Origin: Leucoraja erinacea
Lineage: Eukaryota
Direction of reading: 5' to 3'
DNA: 64,000 nt
Assembly (NCBI RefSeq): GCF_028641065.1
Contig: NC_073377.1
Span: forward strand, 57,660,001-57,724,000
The notes beneath the pieces were generated by a model, which worked only from the letters and a program-made list of their open reading frames with translations, searched no databases and was not told the DNA's origin. The first letter of the stretch is position 1. Every line of letters starts with the position of its first letter. The translations under genes were made by a program, and so were the position numbers. Positions 983 to 27,855 of the stretch are shown here, piece by piece.

Positions 983-1120
983 ATGTGTAGGAAGGAACTG
1001 CAGATGCTGTTTTACATCAAAAATAGACACAAAATGCTGGAGTAACTCAACGGGTCAGGCAGCATTTCTGAAGGAAAGGAATAGGTGACGTATCGGGTCG
1101 AGACCTCTTTTCAGACTGAG
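983..1120 (-). mobile_element. Penelope-derived pLTR fragment with degenerate hammerhead core
   Basis: gtaggaaggaactgcagatgctg...gagtaactcaacgggtcaggcagc. The minus strand reads CTGAAAAgaggtctcgacccGATACgtca. Confidence 0.7.
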
Positions 1121-1974
1121 CAAAATGTTATGTTGGATGATTGAAAATAACCAAAATGGACTACTCTTAAGATTACGAAATAAATATTTTAAAAATGTAG
1201 ACAGTAAGGTAAAGTAAACTTGTGAATTTGAATTATAAAGGAATATTAAAATAATAAAATATTGTGTCGACATAAAAATATCAAACAAAAATTCATAGGC
1301 AGGGCTTCAAGCAATAAAGGATATGCACAATAATGACACCAGGAGGACAGAAATACTATGTAGTTAATATGCCTCTGTACATATTATTATAGTGGACATG
1401 ACATTGCAAGAAGTGATCAAAACGTTAGAGAACATTCAATGTAAAAACGGGAAATTAACTGGGAAACTAATCATATGCAGCCAATCAAAAATGTGATTTA
1501 TAAATTACTATCTTCAGGGCAGCTAGAAATGGAAGATCAATGCTGACCTTGCCAGTAATTTCCACAGCCTACTTTTACAGTGCATTATGTTTTTTAAACG
1601 CCACAGGAGAGATAGCACATTAGATATTTATAAAAATATTATTAGTAAAAGCAATAGTGTCAGAAGACTGACAGACAGCTAATGTGAGTCAGATATATAA
1701 AAAAGGAAGATAGAACAATTCCAGGATCTCAAACCTATCAGCGTAATGTCAATGATAGAAATGAAAATGGAATTCTTACTCAAAGATGGAATCAAAAAAC
1801 ATATAGAAGCTGAAAGCATAATGAAGAACAGTCAGTCAGCAGAGATGCAAAATGAAAGGGCAAACTTGACCAAACATAACAATTAGATAAGAGTAATGCA
1901 GTTAGCACAGTAGCGATTGCTGTCCAAAGAGCTATTGCTTAAGATACCACATGGTAAATGCATGAAAAAGGAAG

Positions 1975-2165
1975 AACATTTGCTGTTCATCTAAATGCAT
2001 GTGCATCTTATCCCTCAGAATACTCTTTAATAACTTTCCGACCACAGATGTAGGACTCAATGTCTTATAGTTTTCAGGCTTTTCCCCGCAGCCCCTCTTA
2101 AATAGTGGCACAATGTTTGCCATCCTCCAGTCTTCCAGGCACTCACACATATTTAATAATGACTC
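1975..2165 (-). mobile_element. CR1 RT fragment
   Basis: ORF 1932-2150 gives EDWRMANIVPLFKRG..NYKTLSPTSVVGKLL. Confidence 0.8.
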
Positions 2166-2184
2166 ATAATTGGAGTCATTGTCA

Positions 2185-3325
2185 TAGAGTCATAGTTATA
2201 GAGTAATACAGTGTGGAAACAGGCCCTTCAGCCCAACTCGCCCACACCGGCCAACAATGTCCCATCTACAATACAATACAATACAATGCCATTTATTTGT
2301 CATTTGAACCTCACATGAGGTTCAAACGAAATTTGGTTTCTGCAACCATATAAATAAAAGAACCAAGACACACCAACACAGTTTGCACAAACATCCATCA
2401 CAGTGAATCTCCTCCTCACTGTGATGGAAGGCAAAGTCTTGTCTCTTCCCTGCTCTCCATTCTTCTCCCGATGCCAAAGTCAAAGCCCCCGGCGGGCGCT
2501 AGCAAGTTCGCGGCCATTTAAAGCCATGCCGGGCGATGTAAGGCCCTGCTCCGGGTCTTGATGTTGGAGCCCCCAGCGGGCGCTAGCAAGTCCTGGCGAT
2601 GTAAGGCCCCGCTCCAGGTCACTCTCAACCCCGCAATTCGAGCGGGAGAAGTCGCCATTGCCAGTGTCCCGCAAAGCGGTCTCCCAGCAGGGACCCGCGG
2701 GCTCCCGGTGTCACCATCCACCGGAGTCGGGTTGCAGCCGCGCGCCACCGCAGCTCTCCATGCTCCGAAACCGGCCAGCTCCACGATGGTAAGTCCACAG
2801 CTCCGCAGGCTCCGTGACTTGAGCCTCCAGGTCGTTCTGGTTGGAGGCCGCTCCACGGTGCTAAGCCCCAACGACAACGGAGACCCGACAGGGAAAAGGT
2901 CAGGTCCCCATGCAGGGAAGATATTTAAAAGTTTCCCCCACCCCCCACACATACACATTTAAAAGCCCACTCCAAATTATACCCTCAACGGGACAAAAAA
3001 CCCCAAAAAAACACAGACAGACTGCGGAGGCCGCTGCGACATCAGTCGCGCCAACACTAGTCCCACTTGCCTACGCTTGGTCCATAACCCTCCAAACCTG
3101 TCCTATCCAGGTACCTGTCCAACTGTTTCTTAAACGATGGGATAGTCCCACCCTCAACTATCTCCTCTGGCAGCTTGTTCCATACACACACCATCCTCTG
3201 TGTGAAAAAGTTACCTTTCGGATTCCTATTAAACCTTTTCCCCTTCACCTTGATCCTATGTCCTCTGGTCATCGATTTCCCTTCTCTGCATAAAAGAGTC
3301 TGTGCATCTACCCAATCTATTCCAC
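2185..3325 (-). mobile_element. CR1 3' end, split by the insertion at 2270-3053
   Basis: TRGHRIKVKGKRFNRN..FFTQRMVCVWNKLPEE..LDRYLD, plus a CR1-type 3'UTR and catagagt tail repeats at about 2183-2205. Confidence 0.8.
2270..3053 (-). mobile_element. CpG-rich non-coding retroposon with Rex1-like 3' tail
   Basis: (ATACA)n tail and atttatttgtcatt at the left end. Perfect 12-bp stem CCATCACAGTGA/TCACTGTGATGG at 2395-2427. GC-rich body; related copy at 52279-53127. Confidence 0.6.
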
Positions 3326-3451
3326 TTACATTTGCAGGCACCTGTACCGAGAACAAAGAGGGACCCAGTGTGGGGAGATCCACCAGGAGAACAAAGGGGG
3401 GATCCAGCATCCAAGGGGGGGGGGGGGGGGGGGTGCGGGGGTTACAGTTTT

Positions 3452-4925
3452 CAGGCACCTGTACCTTCTTCCCAAAGGCAGGAATGAAATTAATGTGATG
3501 CCAGGATGGTATGGATCTCTGATGATGCTGGCTGCCTTTTTTGAGGCAGCGACTCCTAGACATCCCTTCGATGATGGGGAGGTCCGTACCCATGATGGAC
3601 TGGGGAACCAAACCTAGCCATGATACAAACAGTCAATATGCTCTCCATAGTGCATCAGTAGAAGTTCAAGAGAGTATTTGTTGACATACCGAATCTCCTC
3701 CGTCTTCTAAGGAAGTAGAGGCTTTGATGGACTTTCTTTACGATTGCATCTTTAGGACAGATGTTCAGAGATACGCACACCCAGGGATTTGAACTTCTTG
3801 ACTCTCTCTACCACCGTCCCATTGATGAAGCCAGGTTTGTGGGTGCTCAGCTTTCCTCTACCAAAGTCAACAATCAGTCCCTTGTTTTTACTGACATTGA
3901 GAGCAAGGTGTTGGCCAGAGGAACATTGGTATTCTCCCTCCTATACTGTGACTCATCAATATCTGTAATGTGTCCAACAATAGTGGCGTCATTAGCATAC
4001 TTGAAGATGTAGTTGGAACTGTGTTGGGCCACACAGTCATGGGTACAGAGTGAATTGAGCAGGGGGCTAAGTACGCAGCCTTCGGATGCTCGTGCAATGA
4101 ATGTTATCGAGGAGGAAGTATTGTTGCCAATTCATACAAATGTTGAGTAAGTCGAGCATCCATTTGCAAAGGGATGCTCAGAGACCCAATTCTATAAGCT
4201 TGGTAAACAATTTGGAGGTGATGATGGTGTTGAACGCTGGGCTGTAATCCATGAACAACAGGCAGACACATGCATTTTCATTGTCTAAGTGTTCCAGTAC
4301 AGAGTGGAGAGCCAGCAAGATTGTATCTTCTGCTGATCTGTTGTGGTGGTCAGCAAATTGCAGCTGTTCCAGATTTTTGAGGTAGGAGTTGATATATGCC
4401 ATAACAAACGTCTCAAAGCACTTCATCACCACAGACGTTAATGCCACTGGTCAGTAGTCATTGAGGCATGTCACCTTCTTGGGCACCGGTATTATTGATA
4501 CCCCGTTAAACCAGGTGAGAACCTTGTTCTTCAGTATGAGAGGTTGAAGATGTCCACAAAAATTCTAACCAGTTGGTCTAGTTTTAAGAACACGGCCAGG
4601 TATATCATCAGGCCAAGATGCTTTCTGATGGTTCACCCTCCTGAAGGGTCTTCTGATATCACCTTCATGGACTGAGATTGTAATACCATCTGGGACTATG
4701 GGGGCCGGGGAAGGCATATCTGTGTTCTCCCTATCAAAGAGTGTATAGAATGCAATGAGGTCATCAGGGAGTGATGTTTCGCTGTCGCTTGAGCTGCTCC
4801 CTGATTTCACCTCGTTGGAAGTGATGGCTTGCAAGCTCTGCCACAGCTGCCGAAAGTCCAGCTCATCCTCCAGTTGTGAGCGAGAGTCACTTTTAAACTT
4901 TTTAATGGCCTTATCGAGGTCGAGA
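3452..4925 (-). mobile_element. Rex1/Babar-type LINE, degenerate RT
   Basis: Minus-strand ORFs give KASWPDDIPGRVLK, ALTSVVMKCFE, LQFADHHNRSAED, LLFMDYSPAFNTI and IEGMSRSRCLKKG, collinear with the intact Rex1 copy at 45963-47311. Confidence 0.85.
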
Positions 4926-5269
4926 AATGCAATATCCAAATTGCAGATTACATCATTGCAGAATGAGAGCTAACGAAGAAGAGGTTAGCAACAAAATAGA
5001 AAGGGACTTCATAATCTTGAAACTAGCATATGTGTTTCAGTGTAGCTTTGCAAGAGATGGAATAAAGAGTCCACCATCCTGCTCTGTATTGCATTCTCCA
5101 TATAGTTCAATGTATTGTGTAAGTTCTGAGCGCCGTGTTGTAGGAAAGATGTTGTCAAGCAGGAAAGGTACAGAGAAGATTTACGAGGATTTTTAGTTTA
5201 GAGATACAGCGGGGAAACAGGCCCTTCGGCCCACCGGGTTCACGCCGATCAGCAATCCCCGCACATTAC

Positions 5270-5680
5270 ATGAACTTACTTAACGCGCGGGTCATCGCCA
5301 ATTTCCCCGTCTCCGCAAGGACGGTCGCCAACTACACGAGCACAGACCCCATTTTGTCGAAGGTACGACATGTTGTCACTCAGGGGTGGCCGAACAGTCC
5401 TAAGCTGGACAAGGAATTCCGCTCATTCCCGAATGCGCAAACGGAAATCTCCTCAAAGGATGGCATTCTGCTCCGCGATTGTCGAGTGATCATTCCGACG
5501 GAACTGCAATAGCAAATTCTGAAACTGTTGCACAAGACACACGTTGGAATTGTGCGAATGAAGGCGCTCGCCCGCATGCATGTGTGATGGTCGAATATCA
5601 AGACCGATATAGCCGACCACTGCAAGGACTGCACATCATGTGCTGAAACAGCCAAGAAAAAGAACACAAAATAAACTGAG
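5270..5680 (+). mobile_element. Gypsy/Ty3 LTR-retrotransposon pol fragment (linker plus integrase HHCC zinc finger), with stops
   Basis: TSTDPILSKVRHVVTQGWP..ISSKDGILLRDCRVIIPTELQ*QILKLLHKTHVGIVRMKALARMHV*WSNIKTDIADHCKDCTSC, i.e. H-x2-H...C-x2-C. Confidence 0.85.
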
Positions 5681-7306
5681 CTAAGATCAACAAAAATCAC
5701 AGACATTGTGTCTCACCCTGCTAGACTTTAAATATTGGTTGCAATTTATTTTCAAATATATTGAACATATGGTGCACAAGAAAACTTAACCTTTCATGAT
5801 CCAATTTCTCAGAAACAATGCATTGTTGAGAGTTTGTTTAATTGATAACTAGCTGTATCGTTGAGATCCAATATGACAGCCTTGGTACCAATTCAGCATT
5901 GCCCGCATGATTTGCCGACTCCACAAATTAGATTAAAAAGAGATTAAACACTGATGAATTTTGTGGTATAAGTGTCTATATAGGATGGAAAGGGAGACGT
6001 ATCTTGCAATACAGATCCCCTTTCACCCGCCCCCCAATGTGAAAATGTCAAAAAATATTGCCCGTGCTTAGCAATATGCCCCATTACCACTAGTCCCACC
6101 TGCCTGCATTTGGCCCACATCCTTCTAACCTTATCCATATACCTGTCCAAATACCTGTTCTTTTGTCTCCTGCTCTGTGATTTGATTGTTGTTTCTGTGC
6201 AAGAGATCATGCAATATGAATTGATGAAGCCCCTTGACATGTCTCCTTTCATTTGTTTGTATATTCCTCACAAGTAAAAGCTAAGCTGCTCCATGGGGTC
6301 CTGGGTTGCCAAGAAGGTTAAACTGGGGCAACAGGAGTTGATCTAAAAAATCCGGGCTCCCTGGTAGTTCAAATGTCTTATGTCACAGCGTTACTTTTGT
6401 CACAAATCAGCTGTGACTGTGGAGGCCAAGTCAATGGATATTTTAAAGCAGAGATAGAGAGATTCTTGATTAATATACGGGTGTCAGTGGTTATGCGGAG
6501 AAGGCAGGAGAATTGGGGCTAGGAGGGAGAGATAGATCAGCGATGATTGAATGGCGGAGTAGACTTGATGGGCCAAATGACCTAATTCTGCTCCTATCAC
6601 ATGACCTTATAAATGTAATTTAACAAAAAAAATCATTTGTGCAAGAACTCAGCAGGTGAGCCGCCAAAATTATTGCCGTGGAATGTGCAAGGTCTGTTTA
6701 TTCCTAGTGCAGCTGCACTGTATAGGACTGTATTGGACATCGTTTGCTCGAAAGGAGTTTGCATTCTGATTTATTTGATTTAAAGCTCATCATTAATGAA
6801 CGTCCTATTCATTCATCCCCTTCTCTTGGCCCATTAGTATTTGCAGAGTTTGTGAAATTTTGTGCACAGATTTCAGATCATGTGTTACAGTTTAAAATGC
6901 ACTGAATGAGGGGCGGGGACAGTTAACCCTCAGGTCTATGTGGATTGGGGGCATTGAATACTAGATCTTTAGATCATTTCCAGCTTCAATTCATTCATTC
7001 CCCGATTTAACATTTGGATGCAAGCAAATAACCTTCTTTGCCGCAAATTAATTAAGGCAGTGAGGCTGTAATTAACATTCCATGGAGGAATTAATGAGGT
7101 CTCTTTAAATTGAATCACAGTGACCTTTAAAATTAATGCTTTCAGCAGGAGTTTCCAGGGGCAATGGAAGCGAACCAATAAATAGAAAGTAAGTGTCCTA
7201 TGGAGGTCGATCAAATTTAGATAGCACAAACTGAGTAAACGTTTAGTTCTAACAAGTGGTTTGTCAGTTTACACTGACTAATATATAATCAGGATACATC
7301 TGCACA

Positions 7307-8097
7307 GGGTGGCACAGAGGTGGAATTTCTGCCTTGCAGCACCAGGGACTGGGGTTCAATCCTGACTACGGATAAGATACGATAGAACCTTATTTATTCC
7401 AGGAGTGAAATTGATCTGCCAACAGTCATAAAAACACAAAATACATGAAACATGAAATTAAAGTAACGAGTGGAAAGGATTTGGGATGTGCAATGATGGA
7501 GGGGGGAAGGGAGTCAGTCTACCCCATGACAGAAGGAGGGGGAGTTGTACAGTTTGATCGCCACAGGGAGAAAGGATCTCCTGTGGCATTTTGTCCTGCA
7601 TCTTGGTGGAACCAGTTTGTTGCTGATGGCATTCCTCAGGTTGACCACTGTGTCATGGAGAGGGTGAGCTGTATTGTCCAGGATGTTCTGCAGATTGAGA
7701 AGTATCCTCCCCTCCAAGACCACCTCCCATTAGTCCAACTACGCCCCCAGGACAGAGCCAGCCTTCTTGATCTTATTGGCGTCTGCAGCCTTCACCCTGC
7801 TACCTCAGCGCATGGCAGAGAAGAAGATTGCACTGGCTACCACCGAATGGTAGAATATCTGGATGCTGTCTGTATGGAGTTTGTATATTCTCCCAGTGAC
7901 CGCAGGGAGATTCGGTTGATCTGGATAATCCGGTTTCCTCCCACATTCCAAAGATGTGCAGGTTTGTAGGTTAATTGGCTTGGGTAAAATTGATCCTAAT
8001 GTGTATGATAGAATTAGAGTACAGGTGATCATTAGTCGACACAGACTAGGTGGGCCGAAGGGCCCGTTTCCACGCTGTATTTCTAATCAAAACTAAT
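7307..8097 (+). mobile_element. tRNA-derived V-SINE (HE1-like), split by a Rex1 fragment at about 7372-7860
   Basis: B-box ggttcaatcc at about 7353. V-domain tgtatggagtttgtatattctccc..ggtttcctcccacattccaaagatg, then CR1-like tail gggccgaagggcc. Confidence 0.85.
7372..7860 (-). mobile_element. Rex1/Babar LINE 3' fragment
   Basis: FYHSVVASAIF, ILDNTAHPLHD..PRCRTKCHRRSFLPVAIKLYN. Short GGAT duplication at the borders. Confidence 0.8.
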
Positions 8098-8218
8098 GTC
8101 AGCCATGTATGGCAATTGCTCTGCTCTTGGCTGCCTGAATCTACAGAGCGTGGTGTACACAGCTTAGTCCATCACAAGCCTGTCACTCACTTCCATCCAC
8201 TCCAATCTTCATGGTGCA

Positions 8219-9254
8219 TTGGGTCTACTCCTCTAATGCAAAATTCCACCACTCACCCATTCCCCCAGTGCAAGCCGTTCCCCTGACGCAATATTGCACC
8301 ACTCATGCATAGCCCCCAACTGTGCAGGCGCGGCTCATTTCTCCTCATCCCCCAGCACTCCCCACAGGGAGGGGGGGCACAGAGGGAGGGGGATCAGTGA
8401 GGGAGGGGGTCAGAGAGGGAAGTGAGTGAGATGGGGTAGAGAGGGAGAGGGAGGGAGGGGAGAGGGAGGGTAGAGGAGGGGGTAGAGAGGGAGAGGGGCA
8501 GAGAGGGATGGGGGTTGAGGGAGAGAGAGGGGGTAGAGTGGGAGGGGATAGAGAGGGAGGGGGTAGAGAGGAAGTAGGGTAGAGAGGGAGGGGTCCTCCT
8601 CATTTCCCTCATCCTCCTCTCCTCACTCCCATTCCCTGCCCCAGGACCTACACGGGTTGTAGAGCAGCACCAGGGCCTGGAACTCGGCCTGGTTCTCGTA
8701 ATCGGCCCGGTCCTGGTTGTAGACTCCAGCCATCAGCTCAGCCGCTGCCTGGGTTATAGTGCAGGCTACCACTTCATCTCCGGGCTCGTCCAGGACCACA
8801 GACCCAGGATCATCCTTGGTTTCAGCGGCGACTTCATTATCGGCGCCGGTCACGGCCCCATTCCAAGTCCCAGGCTCGGCCCTCACTCCAACTCCAGTAC
8901 CACCCTCCTCACTGGACATAGGGCACCGGCAGCAGCTGCCACACGAGTGTGCTGGAATGCTCCTCCCTCCCGGAGTGTCCGTCCTGTCTTGCGAGTCTGT
9001 TGTGACGTCACTCGGGATTTTTCCCGAAATGGGTGAGTTTTCTGGCTTTTAACTTAAAGCAATCAAAACGTCCAAAAACATAGGTAGGAATGTGATGGGA
9101 AGATGTTTATCACCTCGATGGGAAAAATGTGAGTAGGATGTGTGAAAATAGGAAGGCAGTGGCCTAGCGTTTGGAAGAAAATAGGAAAATTAACCAGATT
9201 GACATACACACACACAGCCACAAACAAGACAAAGAGTTTTAGTATTATAAGAGA
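8219..9254 (-). mobile_element. Non-autonomous Helitron-like element carrying a captured gene-like fragment
   Basis: The minus strand begins A|TCTCTTATAATACTAAAACTC (5'-TC at an AT site). 8255-8360 is near-identical to 12680-12790 of a copy that ends in a hairpin plus CTAG. GA-rich low-complexity spacer at 8365-8600. Confidence 0.6.
8646..8919 (-). pseudogene. Captured exon-like fragment; the 3' part resembles the SAC3/GANP domain of SAC3D1
   Basis: ORF ends ..YNQDRADYENQAEFQALVLLYNP and is followed by a GTAGGT donor (8651-8646). Recalled SAC3D1 motif is Y...(Q/E)xxFQ(A/G)LxLLYNLG. Not verified by search. Confidence 0.55.
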
Positions 9255-9766
9255 TGACGGCAGATATAGACCATTCAGCCCATCAAGTTTACTCTGCCAT
9301 TCAATCATGGCTGATCTACTGGATCTTTCCCTTTCAACTCCGGAGAATTCCCGTCTTTTCCCCCTGACACCCATACAAGAATCTGTCAATCTGCACCTTT
9401 AAAATACCCAATGACGGTCTCCACAGCCATCTACTTTTTGCACAGCTTGAATTGTGCGCTACAGTCTTGCACCATTCTGCTGCTTTGCACTCATTTTGAA
9501 TCATAGTCATAGAAGTATTGTCAAGGATACCTGCCACCCTGGCCATTCCGTTTTCTGCCTTCCATCTCCTGGGCGAACTTATCCTGTCCATGTACCTGTC
9601 TAAATGCTTCTTAAATGTTGCATTAGTACCTGCCTCAACTATTTCCTCTGGCAGCTTGGTTCCACACACCCACCACCCTTGTGTAATAAAATGACCCCTC
9701 AGGTTCCTATTAAATCTTTCCAATCTATGTACTATTCTCTGACCTTCATATGAACAAATTTATTTA

Positions 9767-10320
9767 CATAGAAACAGAAAATAGCTGCAGGAGTAGGCCA
9801 TTTGGCCCTTCGAGCCAGCACTGCCATTCAATATGATCTTGGCTGATCATCTCCATATTCCTTAATTCTGTTAGCCCTAAGAGCTTCTTCTTGCGTATGG
9901 CATGTACAGCCTAAAGTTGTAAGACAACTTGTTCTGTTTGATCTTCAGTCTGTGCACGCCAGGTTGATTGCATTTGTCAAAACAGGGTGGACCGCGTGAA
10001 GGTTGCAATCTCCCACCCCCCTAAGAGCTGAATCTAACTGTCTCATGAAAACATGCAGTGAATTGGCCTCCACTGCCTTCTGTGGCAGAGAATTCCACAG
10101 ATTCACAACTCTCTGGGTGAAGAAGTTTTTCCTCATATCAGTCCTAAATGGCCTACATCTTATTCTTAAACTATGTCCCTGGATCTGGACCCCCAACATC
10201 AGGAACATTTCTCCTGCATCGAGTCTGCCAAATCCCTTAAGAATTGTATATGTTTCCATATGTTTTTAAATGTTTCTATAAGGTCCCATCTCATCCTTCA
10301 AAATTCCAGTAAATACATAC
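9767..10320 (-). mobile_element. CR1/HER1 3' end with an internal short insertion
   Basis: catagaaac tail; ETYTILKG..LDAG..FFTQRVVNLWNSLPQKAVEA. Confidence 0.85.
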
Positions 10321-10349
10321 CCTGGTCTACATGACAATAAAGTAATCTA

Positions 10350-12590
10350 ATCTAACAGCCTTGAGTCCTGGTCAATGTACGGAATCTTTGTGAGGAAACT
10401 TTGTTAGCTGCCAAGGAGTCATCGGTAGAGCTGTGTTGCCTAAAGATTCCATGCTGGGATCACCTTGTCTGCTGGACAATGTGACAAAGGGAAAATCCGC
10501 AGTGGACGGGTGTGTACGGGATAGAAGTGTGCTGAAGATAAAAATTGAGGTTCGCTGTTGGTGAAATACTCAAAAAGTAGGTGCAGAAAAAAGATTTGAA
10601 AGAAGGAAACGTGCTGAAGAGGTGTACAAGTTTTTGTAGGGTGTTCTTGTACGACCTTGAAAGACCGGTGAACATAAATACAATATTGCACAAAGATAAG
10701 GCAAAATTATAATAATTTTGGAATGACATTTATCTTCCATTTTGATTACAATATGCAGACTGAAACATTTGAATGACAAGGAACCATTAGAATTAGTTTA
10801 AGATATGTCCTGGAATTCAGTATGAATACTCTCTTGAACTTCTACATGTGTATGGTAGAGAGCACGTTGACTAATTGCATCACAGCCTAGTTCAGAAATT
10901 TGAACATACTGAAAATGTACCCAACAACTCACTTCCACCATTCAAATCTTTTATTCAGAAATGCAGCATGGAAAGAACCCTTCAGCCCACCAACTCATGG
11001 AGACCATCGATCACCCGTCCACATTAGTTCTATGTAATTCCACTTCCTTATCAATTCCCTACACAATGAGTCTTCAGGGGTGAGGGCAATTTACAGAGGC
11101 AATTAACCTACAAACCTGCACGTCTTTAGGATGTGGGGAGAAACCGGAGCACCAGGAGGAAACCCATGTGGTTACAGGGAGAATGTACAAACTACATATG
11201 ATTGTAATTGAAATTGGGTCTCTGGTGAGGCAGCAGCTCTACCTGTTGTGTCATTGTGCTGCCCTTGACGTAATGCTCAATAATATTACCTTGTAGTCCA
11301 GAATTTCCCAAACATGCCTATCTAAGCATGCTTTCAGTATTTGTGCAAAACCTATCCTTACTGCACTCTAAATGCCTCTTGATCTTTCTAAACTATATTT
11401 CCTGAGTAATTATGAGTTAGGTATTCCATTGTTCTCTTGTCAGTAACTGATGCACAGTTCTACCTTTTTTTTAATAGCAGATTTAGATATTCTCATGCAG
11501 CAAGATAAAATAAAATGCGAGACTGTTGGGAGACATTTGAGACATGATGATTTTAACCAAGGAAATGGATCATTTCCAGATTTCTTGGTTGATATTCTCT
11601 CAATAGAAAACAGAGTGCTTCTAAACGACAGGCAACAAATTCTATTGTCGCCAAAGGCAATGTCATTCTATACATCTGCAAAAATAAAAAAAATGTGCCC
11701 TCGCTCTGTAATTTAAATTTCATAACATATCTCGAATTATATATGAACAGTTAAGCTGCATATTGTAGACAGATGTTAATTGTAAAAGGCATGATATACT
11801 CATTTTGAATGTGGTTTAAATCTATCGGTAATTTCCATCTCAGATTCAATACCCAGATTGCCTGACCACTTGCAAACAAGACTGCTGCCTGAAAACATGG
11901 CATCAGTATACAGAAGCTGCAATTAGTTGAGTGACAAAGAAAGTTCAAATAAATGGAGCCTTCATCCAGACAGTAAAAGCACACTTAAATGGGCATTGTC
12001 AAGAATTTCTGGACTGCACCGCAATAGTTCCTGCACATTAACTCAGATCATTTCAAAACTGTTGAAAATGGAGACAACCAACTTACTGTGAGTGTACAAA
12101 ATAAGTACGTTTTTCAGCTAGGAGCAACCAAATTGATTTGGCTTTGAAGGCAACTAGTTAATATTTGAACTGTAGCATATAGAGAAAATAGATTACTAGA
12201 AACATCATACACTGTATGATAGCAATTGAGAGTTGTAACTGAGCCAGATTTCAGTGCATTTTGAAGTGTGAAAACAATTGCCTGGTGAAATTTGGAGAAA
12301 TGTCATTTTGACAGATTTCTATTTCAGCTCAGCTACACCTTCCACAATTACACTGACATCACTCACCTCCACCTCACTATCACCTGGATTTGCCAGCCCT
12401 GCAAATTGATCTGTTATGCTACCTGCCCAATGTCCAGGACAGAGTGAACAGAATTTTTTCGAAAAATTATATGTTACAAAGACCAAAGACACTAGATGTG
12501 GCTGATTGTGCTGTGATCGAGATACAAACACCACAAACAGAGGAAGAAAGGAAGTTTGATCAAGAATGTGTCAATAATTTACTGACAAAC
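10350..12590 (+). mobile_element. Very old Gypsy pol fossil (RT thumb to integrase), interrupted by SINE and Rex pieces
   Basis: Read across frameshifts and stops: MLG-HLVSAG (about 10450), CTSFCRVFLYDLERPVNINTILHKDKAKL..FWND (about 10620-10730), QQDKIKCETVG..LSIENRVLLNDRQQILL (11495-11650), RF..IA*PLANKTAA (about 11840-11890), LHPDS..TLKWALS (about 11960-12000). The order matches Gypsy pol. Confidence 0.55.
10960..11266 (-). mobile_element. V-SINE (HE1-like)
   Basis: aattaacctacaaacctgcacgtcttt..ggagaaaccggagcacc..gggagaatgtacaaact is the reverse V-domain. Confidence 0.8.
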
Positions 12591-13280
12591 TAGACTAACA
12601 GGGACCTGTTGGGTCTACTTCACACTGGAGGCCTGATCTGCCAATGCAACCCATTCCTCCAACGCAATATTTAATCACTTACCCATTCCCCCAATGCAAC
12701 CCATTCCCACAACGCAATATTGCACCACTCATGCATAGCCCCCAACTGCGCATGCACGGCTCAGTTCATTTCATCCCCAGCACTCCCTCCCCTCCTCTTC
12801 TCCATTCCCTCTTCTTTCCCCTCTCCTCCTCCCCTCCCCAATCCCTCCCTCATCTCTCCCTATCCCTCCTTTCCCCTACCCTTAGTCACAGTCCCTTCCC
12901 CCTACCTCCATAACTCCTCTCCCTTCCCTACCCCCCTCCTATCCCTCTATCCCCCACCCCTCACCTCCACCTATCCTCCCCACTATCCCTCCTGACCTCC
13001 CCCACTGTTCTCCTCTCACTCCATTCCCCACTCCTTACCTCCCACACTCCCTCCATCCTCTCCCTCTATTCCCCCTCCTCCCCCCCACTCGCCTCACCTC
13101 CCCTACTTTCCCATTCTCCCTCCCTGCCCCTTTCTCTCCCTCAATCCCCCCACTCTCCCTCCTCACCTTCCCGGGATATTTCCCTCCTCCTCCTCCCCTC
13201 CCACAATCCCTCCCTCACCTCTCCCTCCCTTTCCTTTCCCCTACTCTCAGTCACTCCCTCCCTCCTTCCCTCCATCCATA
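12590..13280 (-). mobile_element. Non-autonomous Helitron-like element, 3' terminus
   Basis: Plus strand reads A|CTAGactaacaGGGACCtgttGGGTCT, so the minus strand has a GC hairpin about 11 nt from a CTAG|T end. Shares sequence with 8255-8360; C/T low-complexity tract at 12790-13280. Confidence 0.6.
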
Positions 13281-13359
13281 AAAAGCAGCATCTGCAGATC
13301 CTTCCTCCACAGATCATTCATTGTTAGCTGTGGTTTAGATCCCATTGACTTGACGATTG

Positions 13360-13929
13360 GTAGACAAAAGTGCTGGAGAAACTCAGCGGGTGCGGCAGCT
13401 ACTATGGAGCGAAGGAAATATGCAACGTTTTGGGCTGAAACCCTTCTGCAGACTGATGTAGGGTGGGGGGCAGTGGAAGCCGGGAGAAGAAAGGAGAAAG
13501 GAAGAGGAGGAGCCAGAAGGCTGAGGGAGAGCTGAGAAGGGGAGGAGACAGCAAGGGCTACCGGAAATTGGAAAAGTTAATGTTCATGCTGCCAGGTTGC
13601 AAGCTGCCCGAGCGGAATATGAGGTGCTGCTCCTAATATCCTCGGAAGGCAGACGGGGGGGGGGGGGGGGGGGGGGGGGGAGATGTGTCGAGTGGTGGGG
13701 TCACGCTGGCAGTGGCAAAAATGACGGAGGACTATTTGTTGTATGTGACGGCTAGTGGGGTGAAAGGTGAGGACTAGGGGGACTCTGCCCTTATTATGAC
13801 TGGGGGGATGGGGAGGGAGAGCAGTGTTACGGGGTATTGAAGAGACCCTGATGAGAGCCTCATCTATAGTAGGGGAGGGGAACCCCTGTTCCCTGAAGAA
13901 TGAGGACATTTCCGATGCATTGGTGTGGA
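13360..13929 (-). mobile_element. Penelope-like element, inverted 3' segment with pLTR
   Basis: HTNASEMSSFFREQGFPSPTIDEAL..NKGRVPLVLTFHP is the reverse-complement counterpart of 18845-19826; pLTR at 13360-13460. Confidence 0.9.
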
Positions 13930-14079
13930 GAACAGAATGCCCGGAGATGACGGAAAATGTGTGAAGTGTCTTGAACATAGGTAGGGAGGGATTTACCTGG
14001 CCTACCTGGGGGCAGCGACAGCGGCCGGGCCTCTGGCACAAAGACCGGTCCTGTTGCTCAGAAGGGTAAGGAAAAGAAG

Positions 14080-14863
14080 AGGAGGGCAATTGTAATAGGG
14101 GACTCTATAGTCAGGGTGTCGGATAGGCGATTCTGTGAATGCAGACAGGAGACTCGGATGGTAGTTTGCCTCCCTGGTGCCAGGGTCAGGGATGTGTCTG
14201 AGCGTGTCCAAGACATCCTGAAATGGGAGGGAGAGGAGCCTGAGGTTGGGGTACATATAGGTACCAACGACATAGGTAAAAAAAGAGAAGAGATCCTGAA
14301 AGAAGAATTTAGGGAGTTAGGTAGAGAGTTAACTTGAAGTAGAGAGTTTTTTCACACAGAGAGTGGTGAATCTCTGGAACTCTCTGGCACAGAGGGTAGT
14401 CGAGGCCAGTTCATTGGCTATATTTAAGAGGGAGTTAGATGTGGCCCTTGTGGCTAAGGGGATCAGAGGGTATGGAGAGAAGGCAGGTACGGGATACTCA
14501 GTTGGATGATCAGCCATGATCATATTGAATGGCGGTGCAGGCTCGAAGCGCCGAATGGCCTACTCCTGCACCTAATTTCTATGTTTCTATGTTTCTATGT
14601 TAAGGAGAAGGACTGCAAAGGTAACAATCTCAGGATTACAGCCTGTGCCACGCGACAGTGAGAGTAGGAATGGAGCGAGGTGGAGGATAAATGAGTGGAT
14701 GAGGGACTGGTGCAGTGGGTGTGGATTCAAGTTTCTGGATCATTGGGACCTCTTTTGGGGAAGATGCGACCTGCACAGAAAGGACGGGTTGCACTTGAAC
14801 TTGAGGAGGACCAATATCCTGATGGGGAGATTTGCAAAGGCTACTGGGGAGACTTTAAACTAG
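14080..14863 (+). pseudogene. CR1 ORF1 SGNH/GDSL-esterase domain, interrupted
   Basis: ORFs 14116-14337 and 14597-14863 rejoin (RELGREL|RRRTAKV) once the nested insert is removed. Confidence 0.9.
14334..14598 (+). mobile_element. HER1/CR1 3' tail nested in ORF1
   Basis: FTQRVVNLWNSL-coding end and (TTCTATGT)n tail; GTTAA on both sides. Confidence 0.9.
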
Positions 14864-17800
14864 TATGGTTGGGGGGAGGGACTCAAATAGGGAAAGCTAG
14901 TAGTCAGTGTGTGAGGCAGGAGGCAGAGAATGGTAGCACTCTGACCCAAAATGTAGGGGAGAGAGAAGAAAAGGACAATAAACAGAGAATAAGAGAGGGT
15001 GGGTTTCTTAAATGTTCATATTTTAATGCTAGGAGCATTGTAAGAAAGGTGGATGAACTTAGAGCCTGGATTGACACCTGGAAGTATGATGTTGTGGCAA
15101 TCAGTGAAACATGGTTGCAGGAGGGCTGTGATTGGAAACTAATAATTCCAGGATTTCGTTGCTTCAGGTGTGATAGAATTGGAAGGGCAAGAGGTGGAGG
15201 TGTTGCATTGCTTATCAGGGAAGATATTACAGCAGTGCTTTGGCAGGATATATTAGAGGGTTCATCTAGGGAGGCTATTTGGGTGTAACTGAGAAATGGG
15301 AAAGGGGTAGCAACACTTATAGGGCTGTATTATAGACCACCAAATGGGGAGCGAGAATTGGAAGAGCAAATATGTAAGGAGATTGCAGATATTAGTAGTA
15401 AGCACAAGGTAGTGATTGTGGGAGATTTCAATTTTCCACACATAGACTGGGAAACACATTCTGTAAATGGGCTGGATGGGTTGGAGTTTGTAAAATGTGT
15501 GCAGGATAGTTTTTTGCAGCAATACATAGAAATACCTACTAGAGAAGGGGCGGTGCTGGACCTCCTGTTAGGAAATGAGACAGGTCAGGTGGCAGAGGTA
15601 TGCGTTGGGGAACAGTTCGGGACCAGTGATCACAATACCATTAGTTTCAATATAATTATGGAGAGGGTCAGAACTGGACCTAGGGTTGTGATTTTTGATT
15701 GGAGAAAGGCTAACTTTGAGGAGATGCAAAATGATTTAAAAGGAGTAAATTGGGACAGTTTGTTTTATAGGAAAGATGTGGAAGAGAAATGGAGGACATT
15801 TAAAGGTGAAATTTAAAGAGTACAGAATCTTCATGTCCCTGTTCGGTTGAAAGGAAATAGTAATAATTGGAAAGAGCCATGGTTTTCAAGGGAAATTGGA
15901 CACTTGGTTCGGGAAAAGAGAGAGATCTACAATAATTATAGGTAGCATGGAGTAAATGAGGTGCATGAGGAGTATAAAGAATGTAAAAAGAATCTTAAGA
16001 AAGAAATTAGAAAAGCTAAAAGAAGATATGAGGTTGCTTTGGCAAGTAAGGTGAAAGTAAATCCAAAGGGTTTCTACAGCTATATTAATAGCAAAAGGAT
16101 AACGAGGGATAAAATTGGTCCATTAGAGAGTCAGAGTGGACAGCTATCTGCAGAGCCAAAAGAGATGGGGGAGATATTGAACAATTTATTTTCTTCGGTA
16201 TTCACCAAGGAGAAGGATATTAAATTATGTGAGGTAAGGGAAACAAGTAGAGAAACTATTAGATTCAAAGAAGAGGAAGTACTGACACTTTTGAGAAATA
16301 TAAAAGTGGATAAGTCTCCAGGTCCGGACAGGATATTCCCTAGGACATTGAGGGAAGTTAGTGTAGAAATAGCAGGGGCTATGACAGAAATATTTGCAAA
16401 TGTCATTAGAAACGGGAATAGTGCCGGAGGATTGGCGTACTGCGCATGTTGTTCCATTGTTTAAAAAGGGGTTTAAGAGTAAACCTAGCAATTATAGACC
16501 TGTTAGTTTGATGTCAGTGGTGGGCAAATTAATGGAAAGGGTACTTAGAGATAATATATATAAGCATCTGGATAAACAGGGTCTGATTAGGAACAGTCAA
16601 CATGGATTTGTGCCTGGAAGGTCATGTTTGAATAATCTTCTTGAATTTTTTGAAGAGGTTACTCGGGAAATTGATGAGGGTAAAGCAGTGGATGTTGTAT
16701 ATATGGACTTCAGTAAGGCCTTTGACAAGGTTCCTCATGGAAGGTTGCTTAAGAAGATTCAATTGTTGGGTATTAATAGTGGAGTAGCAAGATGGATTCA
16801 ACAGTGGCTGAATGGGAGATGCCAGAGAGTAATGGTGGATGTTTTTTTGTCAGGTTGGAGGCCAGTGACTAGTGGGGTGCCACAAGGATCTGTGTTGGGT
16901 CCACTGTTGTTTGTCATGTACATCAATGATCTGGAAGATGGGGTGGTAAATTGGATTAGTAAGTATGCAGATGATACTAAGATAGGTGAGGTTGTGGGTA
17001 ATGAAGTAGATTTTCAAAGTCTACAGAGAGATTTATGCTAGTTGGAAGAGTGGGCTGAAAGATGGCAGATGGAGTTTAATGCTAATAAGTGCGAAGTGCT
17101 GCATCTTGGCAGGACAAATCAAAATAGGACATACAGGGTAAACGGTAGGGAATTGAAGAATGCAGTTGAACAGAGGGATCTGGGAATAACTGTGCACAGT
17201 TCCCTGAAAGTGGAATCTCATGTAGATAGGGTGGTAAAGAAAGCTTTTGGTGGGCTGGCCTTTTTAAATCAGAGCATTGAGTATAGAAGTTGGGATGTAA
17301 TGTTAAAATTGTACAAGGCATTGGTGAGGCCAATTCTGCAGTATGGTGTACAATTTTGGTTGCCTAATTATAGGAAGGATGTCAACAAAATAGAGAGAGT
17401 ACAGAGGAGATTTACTAGAATGTTGCCTGGGTTTCAGCAACTAAGTTACAGAGAAAGGTTGAACAAGTTAGGGCTTTATTCTTTGGAGCGCAGAAGGTTA
17501 GGGGGGGACTTGATAGAGATCTTTAAAATGATGAGAGGGGTACACAGAGTTGATGTGGATAAGCTTTTCCCACTGAGAGTAGGGAAGATTCAAACAAGGG
17601 GACATGACTTGAGAATTAAGGAACAGAAGTTTAGGGGTAACATGAGGGGAACTTCTTTACTCAGAGAGTGGTGGCTGTGTGGAATGAGCTTCCAGTGAAT
17701 GTGGTGGAGGCAGGTTCGATTTTATCATTTAAAAATAAATTGGATAGTTATATGGACGGGAAAGGAATGGAGGGTTATGGTCTGAGCGTAGGTATATGGG

Positions 17801-17892
17801 ACTAGGGGAGAATACGTGTTCGGCACGGACTAGAAGGGTCGAGATGGCCTGTTTCCGTGCTGTAATTTTTATATGGTTATATGGTTATATGG

Positions 17893-18185
17893 ATGGAGTC
17901 GAGGTATGTGGAAATAAGTTTGGTGGGGCATGAACAGGCAGAGACAATGGGTCCGCCAGAGCAGTCAGGTTTGTGGATTTTGGGGAGAAGATAAAATCAG
18001 TCCGTGCTGGGTTGGGGAACGATGAGGTTGGAGGCTTGAGGGGGCAGGGAGCCGGTGTGGATGGTCAGTGATGGTGTTAGAGATACTAGCCTGCTGCTCG
18101 TCTGTGGGGTCATGGTCCAGGGATAAGTAGGAGGAGATGTCCGAGAGTTGGTGTGTGGCCTCGGCTTTATAGAGATCAACTCGCC
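17893..18185 (-). mobile_element. Penelope RT N-terminal segment, inverted
   Basis: DLYKAEATHQLSDISSY..LDHDPT, then PKIHKPDCSGGPIVSACSCPTKLISTYLDSI. Confidence 0.88.
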
Positions 18186-19826
18186 TCAGACACTCTGCAT
18201 CGACTCCGGGCATTCCGTTCTCTATTCCCCCATCCCGTCATCTTCACCATGGATGTCCAGTCACTCTATACCTCCATCCCCCCACTAGGAGGGTCTCAAA
18301 GCCCTCCGTTTCTTCCTCGACCGGAGTATCAACGAATCGTTGTCTACAGATACGCTACTTCGCCTAGCAGAGTTGGTCCTTTCCCTTAATAACTTTTTAT
18401 TTGACTCCTCCCATTGCTTCCAAATACAAGGCATAGCTATGGGCACGCACATGGGCCCCAGCTATGCCTGCCTCTTTGTAGGGTACATCGAAAAATCCTT
18501 GTTTGAGACGTACCAGGGCCCCATCCCCGACCTCTACCTCCGCTACATCAACGATTGCATTGGTGCCATCTCCTGCAACCACACACAACTCACTGACTGC
18601 ATCCGCTTCACAACTAACTTTCATCTGGCACTCAAATACACCTGGACCATTTCTGACACTTCCCTACCATTTCTTGACCTCACTATCTCCATCGCAGGTG
18701 ATAGACATCTGACCGACATCCACTATAAACCCACTGACTCCCATGGCTATCTAGACTACACTTCCCATCCTGCTTCCTGTAAGGACTCCATCCCCTACTC
18801 CCGATTCCTCCGTCTACGCCGCATCTGCTCCCAGGATGAGGTGTTCCACACCAGGGCATCGGAAATGTCCTCATTCTTCAGGGAACGGGGGTTCCCCTCC
18901 CCTACTATAGATGAGGTTCTCACCAGGGTCTCTTCCATACCCCGTAACACTGCTCTCTCTCCCCATCCCCCCACTCGTAACAAGGGCAGAGCACCTTACT
19001 CCTCACCTTTCACCCCACTAGCCGTCACATACAATAAATAATCCTCTGTCATTTTCGCCACCTCCAACGTGACCCCACCACTCGCCACATCTTCCCATCT
19101 CCCCCCCACCCCGTCTGCTTTCTGCAAAGACCACTCCTCCGTAACTCCCTGGTTAATTCTTCCCTTCCCTCCTGCACCACCAAAGGGCATTTTCCCTTGC
19201 GACCGCAAGAGATGCTACACTTGTCGCTGTACCTCCCCCCCTCGATCCATTCAAGGACCCAAGCAGTCGTTCCGGGTGCGACAGAGGTTCACATGCACCT
19301 CCTCCAACTTCATCTATTGCATCCGCTGCTCTAGATGTCAGCTGATCTACATCGGTGAGACCAAGCGTAGGCTTGGCGATCGTTTTGCCGAACACCTCCG
19401 CTCGGTTCGCATTAACCAACCTGATCTCTCTGTGGCTCAGCACCTCAACGCCCCCTCCCATTCCGAATCCAACCTTTCTGTCCTGGGCCTCCTCCTTTTT
19501 CAAGGAGCACCACCGGAAATTGGAGGAGCAGCACCTCATATTCCGCTTGGGCAGTTTGCACCCTAGCAGCATAAACATTGACTTCTCCAATTTCCGGTAA
19601 CCCTTGCTGTCTCCTCCCCTTCTCACCTCTCCCTCAGCCATTTTGCTCATCATCCTCTTCCTTTCTCCTTTCTTCTCCCTGCCCCCCCCCCCACATCAGT
19701 CTGAAGAAGGGTTTTGGCCCGAATGTTGCCTATTTCATTTGCTCCATTGATGCTGCCTCACCCGCTGAGTTTCTCTAGCACTTTTGTCTACCTTCATTTT
19801 CCAGCATCTGCAGTTCCTTCTTAAAC
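18186..19826 (+). mobile_element. Penelope-like element: RT core, GIY-YIG endonuclease and pLTR
   Basis: FTMDVQSLYTSIP, GIAMGTHMGPSYA, LRYINDC, LPFLDL, YKPTDSH and IYCIRC..YIGETKRRLGDRFAEH. pLTR with CTGAAGA at 19701. Confidence 0.95.
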
Positions 19827-19832
19827 GACTTG

Positions 19833-20027
19833 NNNNNNNNNNNNNNNNNNNNNNNNNNNNNNNNNNNNNNNNNNNNNNNNNNNNNNNNNNNNNNNNNNNN
19901 NNNNNNNNNNNNNNNNNNNNNNNNNNNNNNNNNNNNNNNNNNNNNNNNNNNNNNNNNNNNNNNNNNNNNNNNNNNNNNNNNNNNNNNNNNNNNNNNNNNN
20001 NNNNNNNNNNNNNNNNNNNNNNNNNNN
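19833..20027. other. Assembly gap (N run)
   Basis: Run of N characters. Confidence 1.
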
Positions 20028-24403: not shown

Positions 24404-24943
24404 AAGGGTGTGTGTGTAAATACTCATTGTCTGGCTTGTCACAAAGCCTGTAAGAATGATGTACGTGGTGAGGTAGTCTTATTCCAGCCCTTCACAGGTC
24501 TTTGGGTGGAGCCTTGAGTTAGTTCTTGTCACCTGGTAAGTGGCTCACAGAATCACGTCGGCAGGGATAAAACATGTGGCAGGTCAGGGAACATCCATTG
24601 GGGGAGGAGGAGAGTTAATGTTTCATGCCGATGATCTTTCATCTGAAGATAGATAGATATTTCATTTGATGATAGACAAAAGATAAATCTGAACTGGGAT
24701 GAAACGCTCCTTGGAGAGCTGGAAGATGGGACCACTGCTTGTTATTGACTTTTGGATGGTTGATTCTCCTGGCAAGAACCTATTGCCTTTAGCTTCGGAA
24801 CTAATAAGTTGCACGTTTTTTGAATACTTTCCTGTTCTCTGTAGTTATACTGTAGACCAAGTGGGACTATCCATGAAGCATCTTTGCAAAAAACTAAGAT
24901 AAGCTTGGGTTCAGCTGTGAGACTTAACACCAAATTTCTACTA

Positions 24944-27172
24944 CAGGTGCACAACCTTTTATCCGAAGATCCAAATAACGAAAACCTCCGAATAGCGGAC
25001 ATTTTTTTCGGTCCTTGAAGAAAGGTCCTTGAAAACGGGCACCGAGGGCGGCCCGCAGAGGTGACAGCGGAACCTCCGGTCGGTCCTCGAAGAAAGGGGA
25101 ACTAAATCCCCATTCATAAAAGAGAAGGTGAGAGTATATTGCGCGGGAGGGTTAATAATTGACAATATGCTGCTACCTGCCCGCTGAGTTAAAAAGTTCC
25201 CACAGTAGACTCACGATACACAGTGTATCGTGAGTCTTGCGTGGGAACTTTTTAACTCAGCGTGCAGGCAGCAGCAGATTGTCGCTCCCTTCAGTTTCAC
25301 TCCACCTACATCCCTCTGCTTCCCGGCCATGTGTGTGACCCCTTCCCTCCCCAGCTCCCCGCTCATTGCACCGGCGTGGGGGCTTTGCACTGTCTTCACG
25401 TCGGCGATGCTAGCAGCACAGTCCCAGTCACCGGAGACGTCAGGACCAACGGGACACCGACCCCCAGGCCCACTGCAAGCACGGAGATCCCAGAGACCCG
25501 CAGCCGGCAGCAGCCGAGCCCCGTTCCAACTCCAGAGGAAAACTGCAATCTGGCCGGAGACGTCAGGACCACCAGAAGCCGCTCCCCGAGCTGCGCCCCC
25601 TCATCGGGACACTGACCCCCAGGCCCACTGCAAGCACGGAGATCCCAGATCAGCAACTCCAGCCCAGCCCCATTCCAACTCCAGAGGAACACGCTCCCCG
25701 TATGGGCAGAAGCTGATGGTGTGCAAGGGACGTCTTGTTCTTGGGGTCGCGCAGCTCGGGCTGTGGGCGAACTGCCACTTGTCGCCGTAGCGGCCCATCG
25801 GGGAGCGGATTCCTCTGGAGTTGGAGGGGGAGGGGGGTATTGTGCTGTTTGATCGCCCCCTACTATCCCAGGGACAGGGAGACAGGACGTTCACCGAGGG
25901 CGGCCCGCAGAGGTGACAGCGGAACCTCCGGTCGGTCCTTGAAGAAAGGGGAACTAAATCCCCATTCATAAAAGAGAAGGCGAGAGTATATTGCACGGGA
26001 GGGTTAATAATTGACAATATGCTGCTACCTGCCCGCTGAGTTAAAAAGTTCCCACGGTAGACACGGTACACAGTGTAGGCAGCAGCAGATTGTCGCTCCC
26101 TTCAGTTTCACCCCACCTACACCCCTCTGGTTCCCGGCCATGTGTGTGACCCCTTCCCTCCCCTCTCCAGCACCGGCTCATTGCACCGGCGCGGGGGCTT
26201 TGCACTGTCTTCATGTTGGCGATGGCAGCAGGTCAGTACAGTCACCGGAGACGTCAGGACCAATTGGACGTCGACCACCAGGCCCGCCGCAAGCACGGAG
26301 ATCCCAGAGACCCACAGCCGGCAGCAGCCCAGCCCCGCTCCAACTACAGAGGAACCTGGGTTGCGGATGACGGAGCGCAGCTCGGGGCGTCATAGGGGCC
26401 AATCGGGGAGCGGGTTCCTGTTGGTCCTGACGTCTCTGGCCACCTGCTATCCTCCGGGAACTGTACCGCCCTTGCAGGAGAGTGGGGTTGTTTGCAGTTG
26501 CAGAGGGAGGGGGCAAGGGCGGTACAGTTCCCAGTCTCAGCTCCTGTCCAGGTGAGTGGCTGGAGACGTCAGGACCTACGGGACACCGACCCCCAGGCCC
26601 ACTGAAAGCACGGAGATCCCAGAGACCCACAGCCAGCAGCAACTCCAGCCCAGCCCCGCTCCAACTCCAGAGGAACACGTAGGGGCAGAAGCGGATGGTG
26701 TGCAAGGTATGTCTCGTTCTTGGGGTGGCGCAGCTCGGGCTGTGGGCAAACTGCCACTTGTCGCCGTAGCGGCCCATCGGGGAGAGGATTCCTCTGGAGT
26801 TGGAGGGGGGTATTGTGCTGTTTGATCGCCCTCTGCTATCCCTGGGACAGGGAGACACAGCGGCTTTTTAAGACTGGTGGGCAATCATTTCCAAAGTTCT
26901 GCCCACACAGTCAGTACACCTCTCCTACACTGCATTTCATACAAACATTTATTCTGCAAAAAAAACCCTACATTGGAGACTCAAACTCGCGACCGAGTAA
27001 CTGCCGAGATCAAGGCGCAAACTCGCGACCTTGCGGATATGAGGCCGAGCACTCTACCACTGAGCCAGCCATTAAAACCTACGCTAAAAAATTTCCATTC
27101 CGAAGACCGACAAATTCTGAATTACGATAAGTGTCTGGTCCCAAGGCTTTCGGATAAAAGGTTGTGCACCTG
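24944..27172. mobile_element. Non-autonomous Tc1/mariner-pogo (Tigger-like) DNA transposon
   Basis: Perfect 24-bp TIRs CAGGTGCACAACCTTTTATCCGAA / TTCGGATAAAAGGTTGTGCACCTG with TA on both sides (24942-24943, 27173-27174). Internal duplication of about 850-950 bp; no transposase. Confidence 0.92.
27008..27070 (-). other. tRNA-Met-like (CAT) pseudo-sequence inside the TIR element
   Basis: GGCTGGCTCAGTGGTAGAGTGCTCGGCCT-CAT-ATCCGCAAGGTCGCGAGTTTGCGCC. A-box is good; the B-box/T-arm and stems are degenerate. Confidence 0.55.
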
Positions 27173-27855
27173 TAGCACTCATCTGTCCACTGGGATGCAT
27201 TGAGGTCTGCTTCATTTGTTTCCCTCACAAAAATGCAGGGCACTGATTATCTCATGAAGTATCACGACTGCAATGAAGTCCTGCTATTGAGACCTGCTTT
27301 CTAGGGTCTGGTCCACATGGTATTAACTGTATTTCTGTGACAGCTCCAGGACAAGATTCCAGTTGAGTGCTTCATGAAGCTTGAAATCAGTACGAACTAG
27401 GGATACACAGAAAGTAAAACTGTGATTAAACAAAATATATACCCTTTGCCCACATGCACTATTAGCAGTCGCATTTTCTCCTAAAATTAATTATACAGAA
27501 TCCAAAATAATGTTTCAAGTGGTTTCCACAACTGTTCTAACCACTGGAGCTTCAGTGAAGTTTGCAGATTGGGAAGTAACTGATGGAACAGTGCAAGATA
27601 AAGGGCTCTATTTCATGCAACACTGGCACCAGCACTGGGACAATAAATCAGAAAATAAATCAGGCTCCATCTGAACTATCAGAAATAGTAAACATGGCCA
27701 ATATCAGAACACTAACCTCCAATTAGGATGATATAGTACTTAGGTGGGATAAAGTTAATGGAAATACCAATGTTAAATAAATAGAAAGAATGATGGTCAG
27801 AAACTGTGCTTTAAACACTCACAGTAAAGGGGAAACTAAAGGATATAAATCAGGA

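Follow-up and report, generated by a model that had tools for sequence, protein, structure and literature searches.

The window, a 64,000-nucleotide stretch of Leucoraja erinacea DNA, most probably holds an old copy of a non-autonomous Helitron-like element that is truncated at its 3' end and that carries the captured end of a SAC3-domain coding exon together with its splice donor. The element would have spread in trans, and its copies are now decaying. It is about 1 kb in size, and its parts, all read on the minus strand, are collected in Table 1. The surroundings are rich in repeats: 29-30% of the window is masked by self-comparison, and the Pfam matches of its open reading frames (ORFs) are dominated by LINE domains and otherwise consist of weak, scattered matches. 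Elsewhere in the window, an assembly gap (a run of N at about 19820-20026) lies between LINE fragments, and 24942-27174 is a non-autonomous element whose inverted ends match over 26 nt, starting with TA, and whose interior contains GC-rich duplicated blocks. This second element looks like a terminal inverted repeat transposon with cargo, and none of its four ORFs has a Pfam match.

Table 1. Parts of the Helitron-like element and of its sibling copy, in window positions
Feature	Positions	Strand	Basis
5' terminus, Helitron-type start A|TCTC.. followed by TATAATACTAAAA	9237..9254	-	sequence
AT-rich 5' module, common to more abundant sister subfamilies	about 9077..9236 (to 9244)	-	contig depth
GC/CpG-rich promoter-like segment with palindromic CRE and short inverted repeat	8920..9040	-	CpG o/e, GC
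ATG with the upstream ORF part, acidic and rich in Gly/Ala	8758..8919	-	open frame
Captured coding-exon end, SAC3/GANP-like; clearest at 8721-8652, decayed or rearranged at 8757-8722	8652..8757	-	
Splice-donor-like GTAGGT, phase 1, weakened in the window's copy	8646..8651	-	sequence, rough score
Low-complexity tract: purine-rich at 8646-8600, then pyrimidine-rich at 8599-8366	8366..8645	-	
3' subterminal part ending after the left arm of the hairpin, without CTAG	8219..8362	-	likeness to sibling
Cassette-free sibling with an intact hairpin and, at 12593-12589, a CTAG|T end	12589..12787	-	

Other copies of the element were sought by comparing public sequencing runs with 8600-9275 at 80% likeness, which gave three organisms matched in DNA (X1, X6, and X19) and one RNA run (X24). 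Contigs that match the stretch number 2,624 in X1, the best-matching organism, 2,890 in X6, the second, and 154 in X19, the third.

The clearest trace of a gene is the end of an open frame. The ATG at 8919-8917 opens 89 codons that run to 8653 and end in YNQDRADYENQAEFQALVLLYNP, followed by one extra base at 8652 and by GTAGGT from 8651, and the neighboring frame reads QRLS*WLES; on re-reading, both agreed with the original prediction. In the last 23 codons (8721-8653), G or C occupies 16 of the 23 first positions, 5 of the second, and 22 of the third. Of 126,798 other stretches of 69 nt in the window (a length chosen after inspection) and 1,000 shuffled versions of the ORF, not one reached this contrast between second and third positions, so the piece is more than chance. 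The signal fades at the GT, that is, a codon-position signature ends at a splice donor inside a repeat, and 8721-8652 almost certainly stems from a real coding exon that ended there. AlphaFold2 renders 45 residues as one long helix. The upstream part of the ORF (8758-8919) has GC contents by codon position of 0.72/0.54/0.56, and the depth at 8862-8891 is similar to that of the SAC3-like part. A tandem duplication of the SAC3-like piece as the origin of the acidic part was considered and found unsupported, with 56 of 300 shuffles scoring equally.

The donor of the window's copy has a rough score of only 0.76 bits, and its weakness is due to the -1 base, a T in place of the G found in 96% of the X1 depth (79 contigs). 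In the 40 of 240 rows listed, 98% of the X1 depth at 8654 and 96% at 8652 agree on letters that, translated by hand, restore a Leu-Gly end and G|GT. Most other copies read ...LLYDLG|GT where the window's copy reads P|GT, which makes a better phase-1 donor and comes nearer the motif named in the original prediction. At 8658 the majority letter (86% of X1 depth) encodes Asp rather than the Asn of that motif.

Upstream of the ATG is a palindromic CRE (GTGACGTCAC, 9011-9002) at a measured distance of 83 nt, close to the 85 bp or so first claimed. It occurs once in the window, and 43 of 100 shuffles of the 64 kb also hold one, so it is not rare on that scale. An inverted repeat with 6-bp arms and a 4-nt loop (9012-9027) adjoins the palindrome. 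The segment 8920-9040 has a CpG o/e of 0.77 and a GC content of 0.59, compared to 0.38 and 0.44 for the window, and its role as a promoter is putative.

With an ATG, an open frame, and a donor following such a segment, one could consider the cassette an active mobile promoter/ATG/donor unit, some copies of which supply first exons to host genes. All of the parts are present and in order, G|GT is kept in most copies, and the accessible text of PMC4778049 describes HelibatN3 doing so in cells and in Myotis. This is possible but unlikely. The RNA run X24 (oligo-dT, 12.9 million records, about 5% of the run) yielded 116 matching reads on both strands, of which none had at least 95% identity; there were no joints and no pile-ups of starts or ends, and none of the loose ends listed, a list that leaves out 683 rows, falls at the donor at 8651. 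With 5 reads over 8652 and about 5% of the run covered, this is weak evidence. It speaks against strong expression of the window's copy in the sample concerned and has little to tell about the family as a whole. None of the runs listed as containing the stretch is recorded as RNA, a fact with no bearing on expression. Of eight candidate host exons picked in the window by a rough splice score, none was convincing, and the protein searches run, a weak test here, found no annotated protein beginning with the 89-residue peptide. The same low probability attaches to the fullest version of the idea, in which a Helitron-assembled chimeric cassette, made of a CRE promoter, an ATG, an acidic leader, the end of a SAC3D1 exon, and a phase-1 donor, would sit at hundreds of sites in related species, and host genes would gain from some copies a new 5' UTR or an N-terminus of 89 residues.

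The identity of the source gene was approached with profiles. Among 24,736 Pfam families, SAC3_GANP (PF03399) was the sole match for five of five nested fragments of 24-45 residues, at E values of 0.089-0.14 and over about positions 150-176 of the 289 in the profile. The fragments, being nested, are not independent, and the family had been named beforehand in the original prediction from the same resemblance. The predicted SAC3/GANP source thus drew the only family found, at 11.9-12.6 bits against a gathering threshold of 27, which falls short of a significant match; the fragment is so short that reaching the threshold is not to be expected. The upstream 53 residues and the QRLS frame gave no Pfam family, and the full 90- and 141-residue queries gave no Pfam match. 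The control set comprised 246 ORFs of the window (239 of the 274 unmasked ones and 7 others, with the 35 within obvious LINE ORFs left out). At E<=0.1, 19 of the 246 matched some family, 5 of them LINE domains; the weak matches of the other 14, from 241 non-LINE ORFs, were scattered, and SAC3_GANP appeared in none of the 246. Since 14 of 241 controls reach this E value and the SAC3_GANP match is below the threshold, the resemblance is confirmed rather than proven.

Sister copies add to this picture. At 8722, twenty X6 contigs depart from the stretch and continue with 30 letters, whose minus-strand translation by hand is EAQVRECFGR, with G or C at 10 of 10 third positions. SAC3 proteins carry a helix with the pattern Q-x3-C-x3-L-x3-Y, which the decapeptide appears to fit. 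A deletion variant would be expected to shift the frame, and the 30 letters are indeed not in frame with the remainder, suggesting that sister copies may keep more of the source exon. By the same token, the LS(W)xLESY that had been restored from the neighboring frame is doubtful in detail, since that frame has no Pfam match and the 20 contigs hold another coding stretch in its place. The source probably belongs to the SAC3 family. Within the family it is likely to be SAC3D1 rather than GANP or LENG8. The fragment spans about 25-35 residues of a 289-position domain and is therefore unable to form a SAC3 domain.

Broader searches contributed little. The 89-residue ORF had no match among longer proteins (640 and 4 candidates) or proteins of similar length, no match among PDB sequences, and no usable match in the ESM Atlas. 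Among 1.84 billion representative proteins it had 10 matches, all with 3-13 matched stretches, and the 3 of the 10 that were inspected are unrelated repeat proteins. A 24-nt pattern was found at no locus in viral sequences and at five loci in metagenomes, all of them fortuitous, 24-28 nt long, and located in high-GC sequence with no relation to the element.

These results bear on whether the whole unit (CRE region, ATG, 89 codons, and donor) could instead be the captured promoter and first exon of some other host gene, its SAC3 likeness being due to chance. The frame is open from ATG to donor below a CpG-rich segment, and at 8850-8790 the same frame has high GC at first and low GC at second codon positions, with several of the listed majority letters restoring G or C at third positions (by hand). 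Parts from the 5' end of genes are the most frequent captures in bats, as stated in the portions consulted of PMC4224331, and 14 of 241 controls attain an E value of about 0.09. However, GC at third positions of the upstream part is only 0.56, a different coding stretch precedes the fragment in the 20 contigs, the 1.84 billion representatives returned repeat-protein matches only, and the single Pfam match is to the very family named in advance. On balance, a captured first exon of another gene is unlikely.

The captured exon end lies within an element whose two ends are unequally preserved. At the 5' end, the window's copy has TC (9254) preceded by A (9255), as in Helitrons. Loose ends behind 9249 in 37 X1 and 38 X6 contigs share GAGAT on the plus strand, after which the flanks diverge (agreement past the boundary of 0.45 and 0.47, respectively), and a second group of 14 contigs with loose ends at 9244 likewise begins with A|TC. 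Together with the contig counts, the loose ends at 9244 and 9249 mark dispersed copies with independent flanks, another feature of Helitrons. Exits at 9076 (55, 48, and 10 contigs in the three organisms) lead into one common sequence and represent a sister subfamily that is more abundant, has the 5' module in common, and carries other cargo. In X1, the summed depth is 64,000-71,000 at 9129-9174 versus 1,000-18,000 in the ORF. Because the 5' module is common to more abundant subfamilies that leave at 9076, not all A|TC ends come from carriers of the cassette, and the 5'-end contigs may largely be from sister subfamilies without it. No RepHel coding sequence was recognized by Pfam in six ORFs over the element or in four queries.

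At the 3' end, 8362-8230 is 84% identical, over 134 nt, to 12787-12655 of the sibling copy. The sibling's hairpin folds at -6.4 kcal/mol (z -3.59), and none of 200 shuffles folds as well; the window's copy of the element keeps only the left arm, and 5 of 200 shuffles fold as well as it does. An 11-mer is common to 8229 and 12619, the likeness ends at 8219, past the left arm, and the nearest CTAG downstream of the break, at 8049, is within another repeat. A strict pattern search for a hairpin with CTAG found no match in the whole window, the sibling's end having been recognized by reading and folding. Of the TC...hairpin-CTAG termini to which the cassette had been tied, then, the A|TC start is present, while the hairpin-CTAG end (a CTRR|T terminus) is absent from the cassette copy and complete only in the sibling, which has no cassette. 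With this end absent, the cassette copy is classed as Helitron-like and 3'-truncated, not as a proven Helitron, and its association of cassette and 3' part is seen in the window's single copy.

The sibling as a whole spans 12589-13290 and has a purine-rich body, with no cassette and no TC-type 5' end found in it. Its tract is purine-rich on the same strand as that of the cassette copy, and the switch from purine- to pyrimidine-rich sequence at about 8599 is probably an internal inversion in the latter. The junction near 8599 is able to fold back and draws sub-threshold Rfam microRNA matches; all 30 Rfam matches were under the gathering score, with 28 on the low-complexity tract and 2 at 8332-8403. 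Decayed C-terminal remnants of LINE reverse transcriptases (8096-8203 on the plus strand and 7544-7771 on the minus strand) are found downstream of the broken end.

The state of this end raises the question of whether the parts belong to one Helitron at all. A mosaic of neighboring repeats, or spread by an element of another class, would fit a copy that has no CTAG end, is directly followed by a LINE remnant, contains an apparently inverted tract, and has no listed record that spans all of its parts. It is nonetheless improbable, given that a common A|TC boundary is followed by varied flanks, that pieces of other copies connect the CRE region with the 5' module and the donor with the ORF, and that the sibling which the 3' part resembles terminates in hairpin-CTAG|T.

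The comparison of contigs also shows how widely the cassette is spread and how far it has decayed. Of the X1 contigs, 147, 371, 1,027, and 1,079 have identities of 99% or more, 95-99%, 90-95%, and under 90%, respectively, so that 2,106 of 2,624 are under 95%. At the listed places within 8652-8717, 79-103 X1 contigs carry another letter, and a record identical to the window's copy (8733-8932, no differences) has a depth of 8.67. Summed depth in X1 is about 5,000-9,600 at 8652-8717, 5,100-7,200 at 8862-8891, and 800-1,900 at 8754-8836; summed depth is not copy number, but hundreds of copies can be fairly inferred. Transitions account for 104 of 143 variable places in X1, an excess as in a neutrally decaying family, and the window's copy is an outlier at many positions. 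Diverged, overlapping pieces cover 8600-8942 and 8979-9244, bridging, for example, 8979-9165, 9000-9165, 8749-8942, and 8663-8829. In X1 and again in X6, a single contig connects 8721 with 9117, a link in other copies between the fragment and the 5' module, and none of the contigs listed covers 8600-9275 entirely. Parts of the stretch were found in 20 runs from seven organisms, three of which are those compared. The predicted multi-copy cassette associated with an A|TC start is thus borne out by thousands of diverged contigs, a common boundary, and varied flanks. In X19, one contig leaves the stretch at 8884, and another, with a depth of 112 (listed pieces have 3-20), swaps 8688-8773 for 39 other letters (region 8687-8884) and is possibly a young or expressed variant. 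That the unit is a real first exon of a single-copy host gene, as its ATG, open frame, donor, and CpG-rich upstream segment might suggest, is scarcely tenable and largely refuted by the thousands of diverged contigs in several organisms, the outlying letters of the window's copy, the lack of RNA reads with at least 95% identity among the 116, and the lack of a partner exon in the window.

The history that best accounts for these observations would begin with an ancestral element taking up genomic DNA, namely the 3' part of a GC-rich coding exon with its donor junction; the likeliest source is a SAC3-domain gene, probably SAC3D1. Capture would have occurred at the DNA level, with intron sequence included, and probably by rolling-circle read-through past the terminator, as proposed for Helraiser. 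Replication in trans would then have carried the element to numerous sites, no later than the divergence of at least three related organisms, and its copies would now be in neutral decay. The fragment would be a passenger, and any aid to spread more likely came from the promoter-like segment. The sub-threshold Pfam match, the Asp in place of Asn at 8658, the missing hairpin-CTAG, and the lack of a spanning contig count against this explanation. If a many-copy capture in several species is true, it extends the phenomenon to cartilaginous fishes and gives a datable marker. It would also be a caution to annotators, who could meet hundreds of false first-exon or SAC3D1-like matches. It would mean more than that only if copies were shown to start or splice transcripts; host first exons, if true, would amount to bat-style innovation in a second vertebrate lineage.

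In the literature consulted, in part as excerpts, Helitron gene capture in vertebrates is best documented in vesper bats. Helraiser inserts between A and T, has TC and CTAG ends, and captures flanking DNA by read-through when the hairpin is missing (PMC4778049, accessible text). Of 645 Helitrons in Myotis, 110 contain fragments of a total of 54 host genes, and 5' gene parts amplify most (PMC4224331, portions consulted). For cartilaginous fishes, the available text of one paper names Helitrons among the repeats of the whale shark (PMC8455134), that of a 2017 review (PMC5381603) names mostly LINEs and SINEs in the elephant shark, and no account of Helitron cargo was found in a search of open-access papers, Repbase and Dfam being outside its scope. 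The proteins of the presumed source family, SAC3D1, GANP, and LENG8 (PF03399), resemble the captured piece over about 25 residues, in a weak profile match; as far as the excerpts consulted describe them, SAC3/GANP proteins have a PCID2-SEM1-binding domain, which the fragment cannot form (PMC13391367, PMC13105079). No SAC3D1 motif turned up in the article texts searched for one.

The closest precedent, by analogy, is HelibatN3, which carries the NUBPL promoter, six codons, and a donor able to trap exons (PMC4224331, PMC4778049, parts consulted). Both elements are non-autonomous and of Helitron type, with a promoter-like segment, codons, and a donor in many copies. They differ in that HelibatN3 has six codons of the NUBPL first exon and, in the same sources, demonstrated chimeric transcripts, whereas the present element is known from its sequence, belongs to a cartilaginous fish, and has as its recognizable piece a mid-domain segment (PF03399 about 150-176 of 289) that follows some 55 other codons. 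Other Helibat exemplars with sequential captures are alike in their chimeric cargo and in having 5' regulatory parts as the most amplified; their source genes were aligned to host orthologues, whereas the present source is a candidate from a profile match and a motif (PMC4224331, same portions, for the bat elements). Seen against these systems, the element would be an instance of gene capture of a kind known from bats: a gene fragment, probably derived from SAC3D1, carried in many copies by a Helitron-like family, of which the window holds a broken copy.
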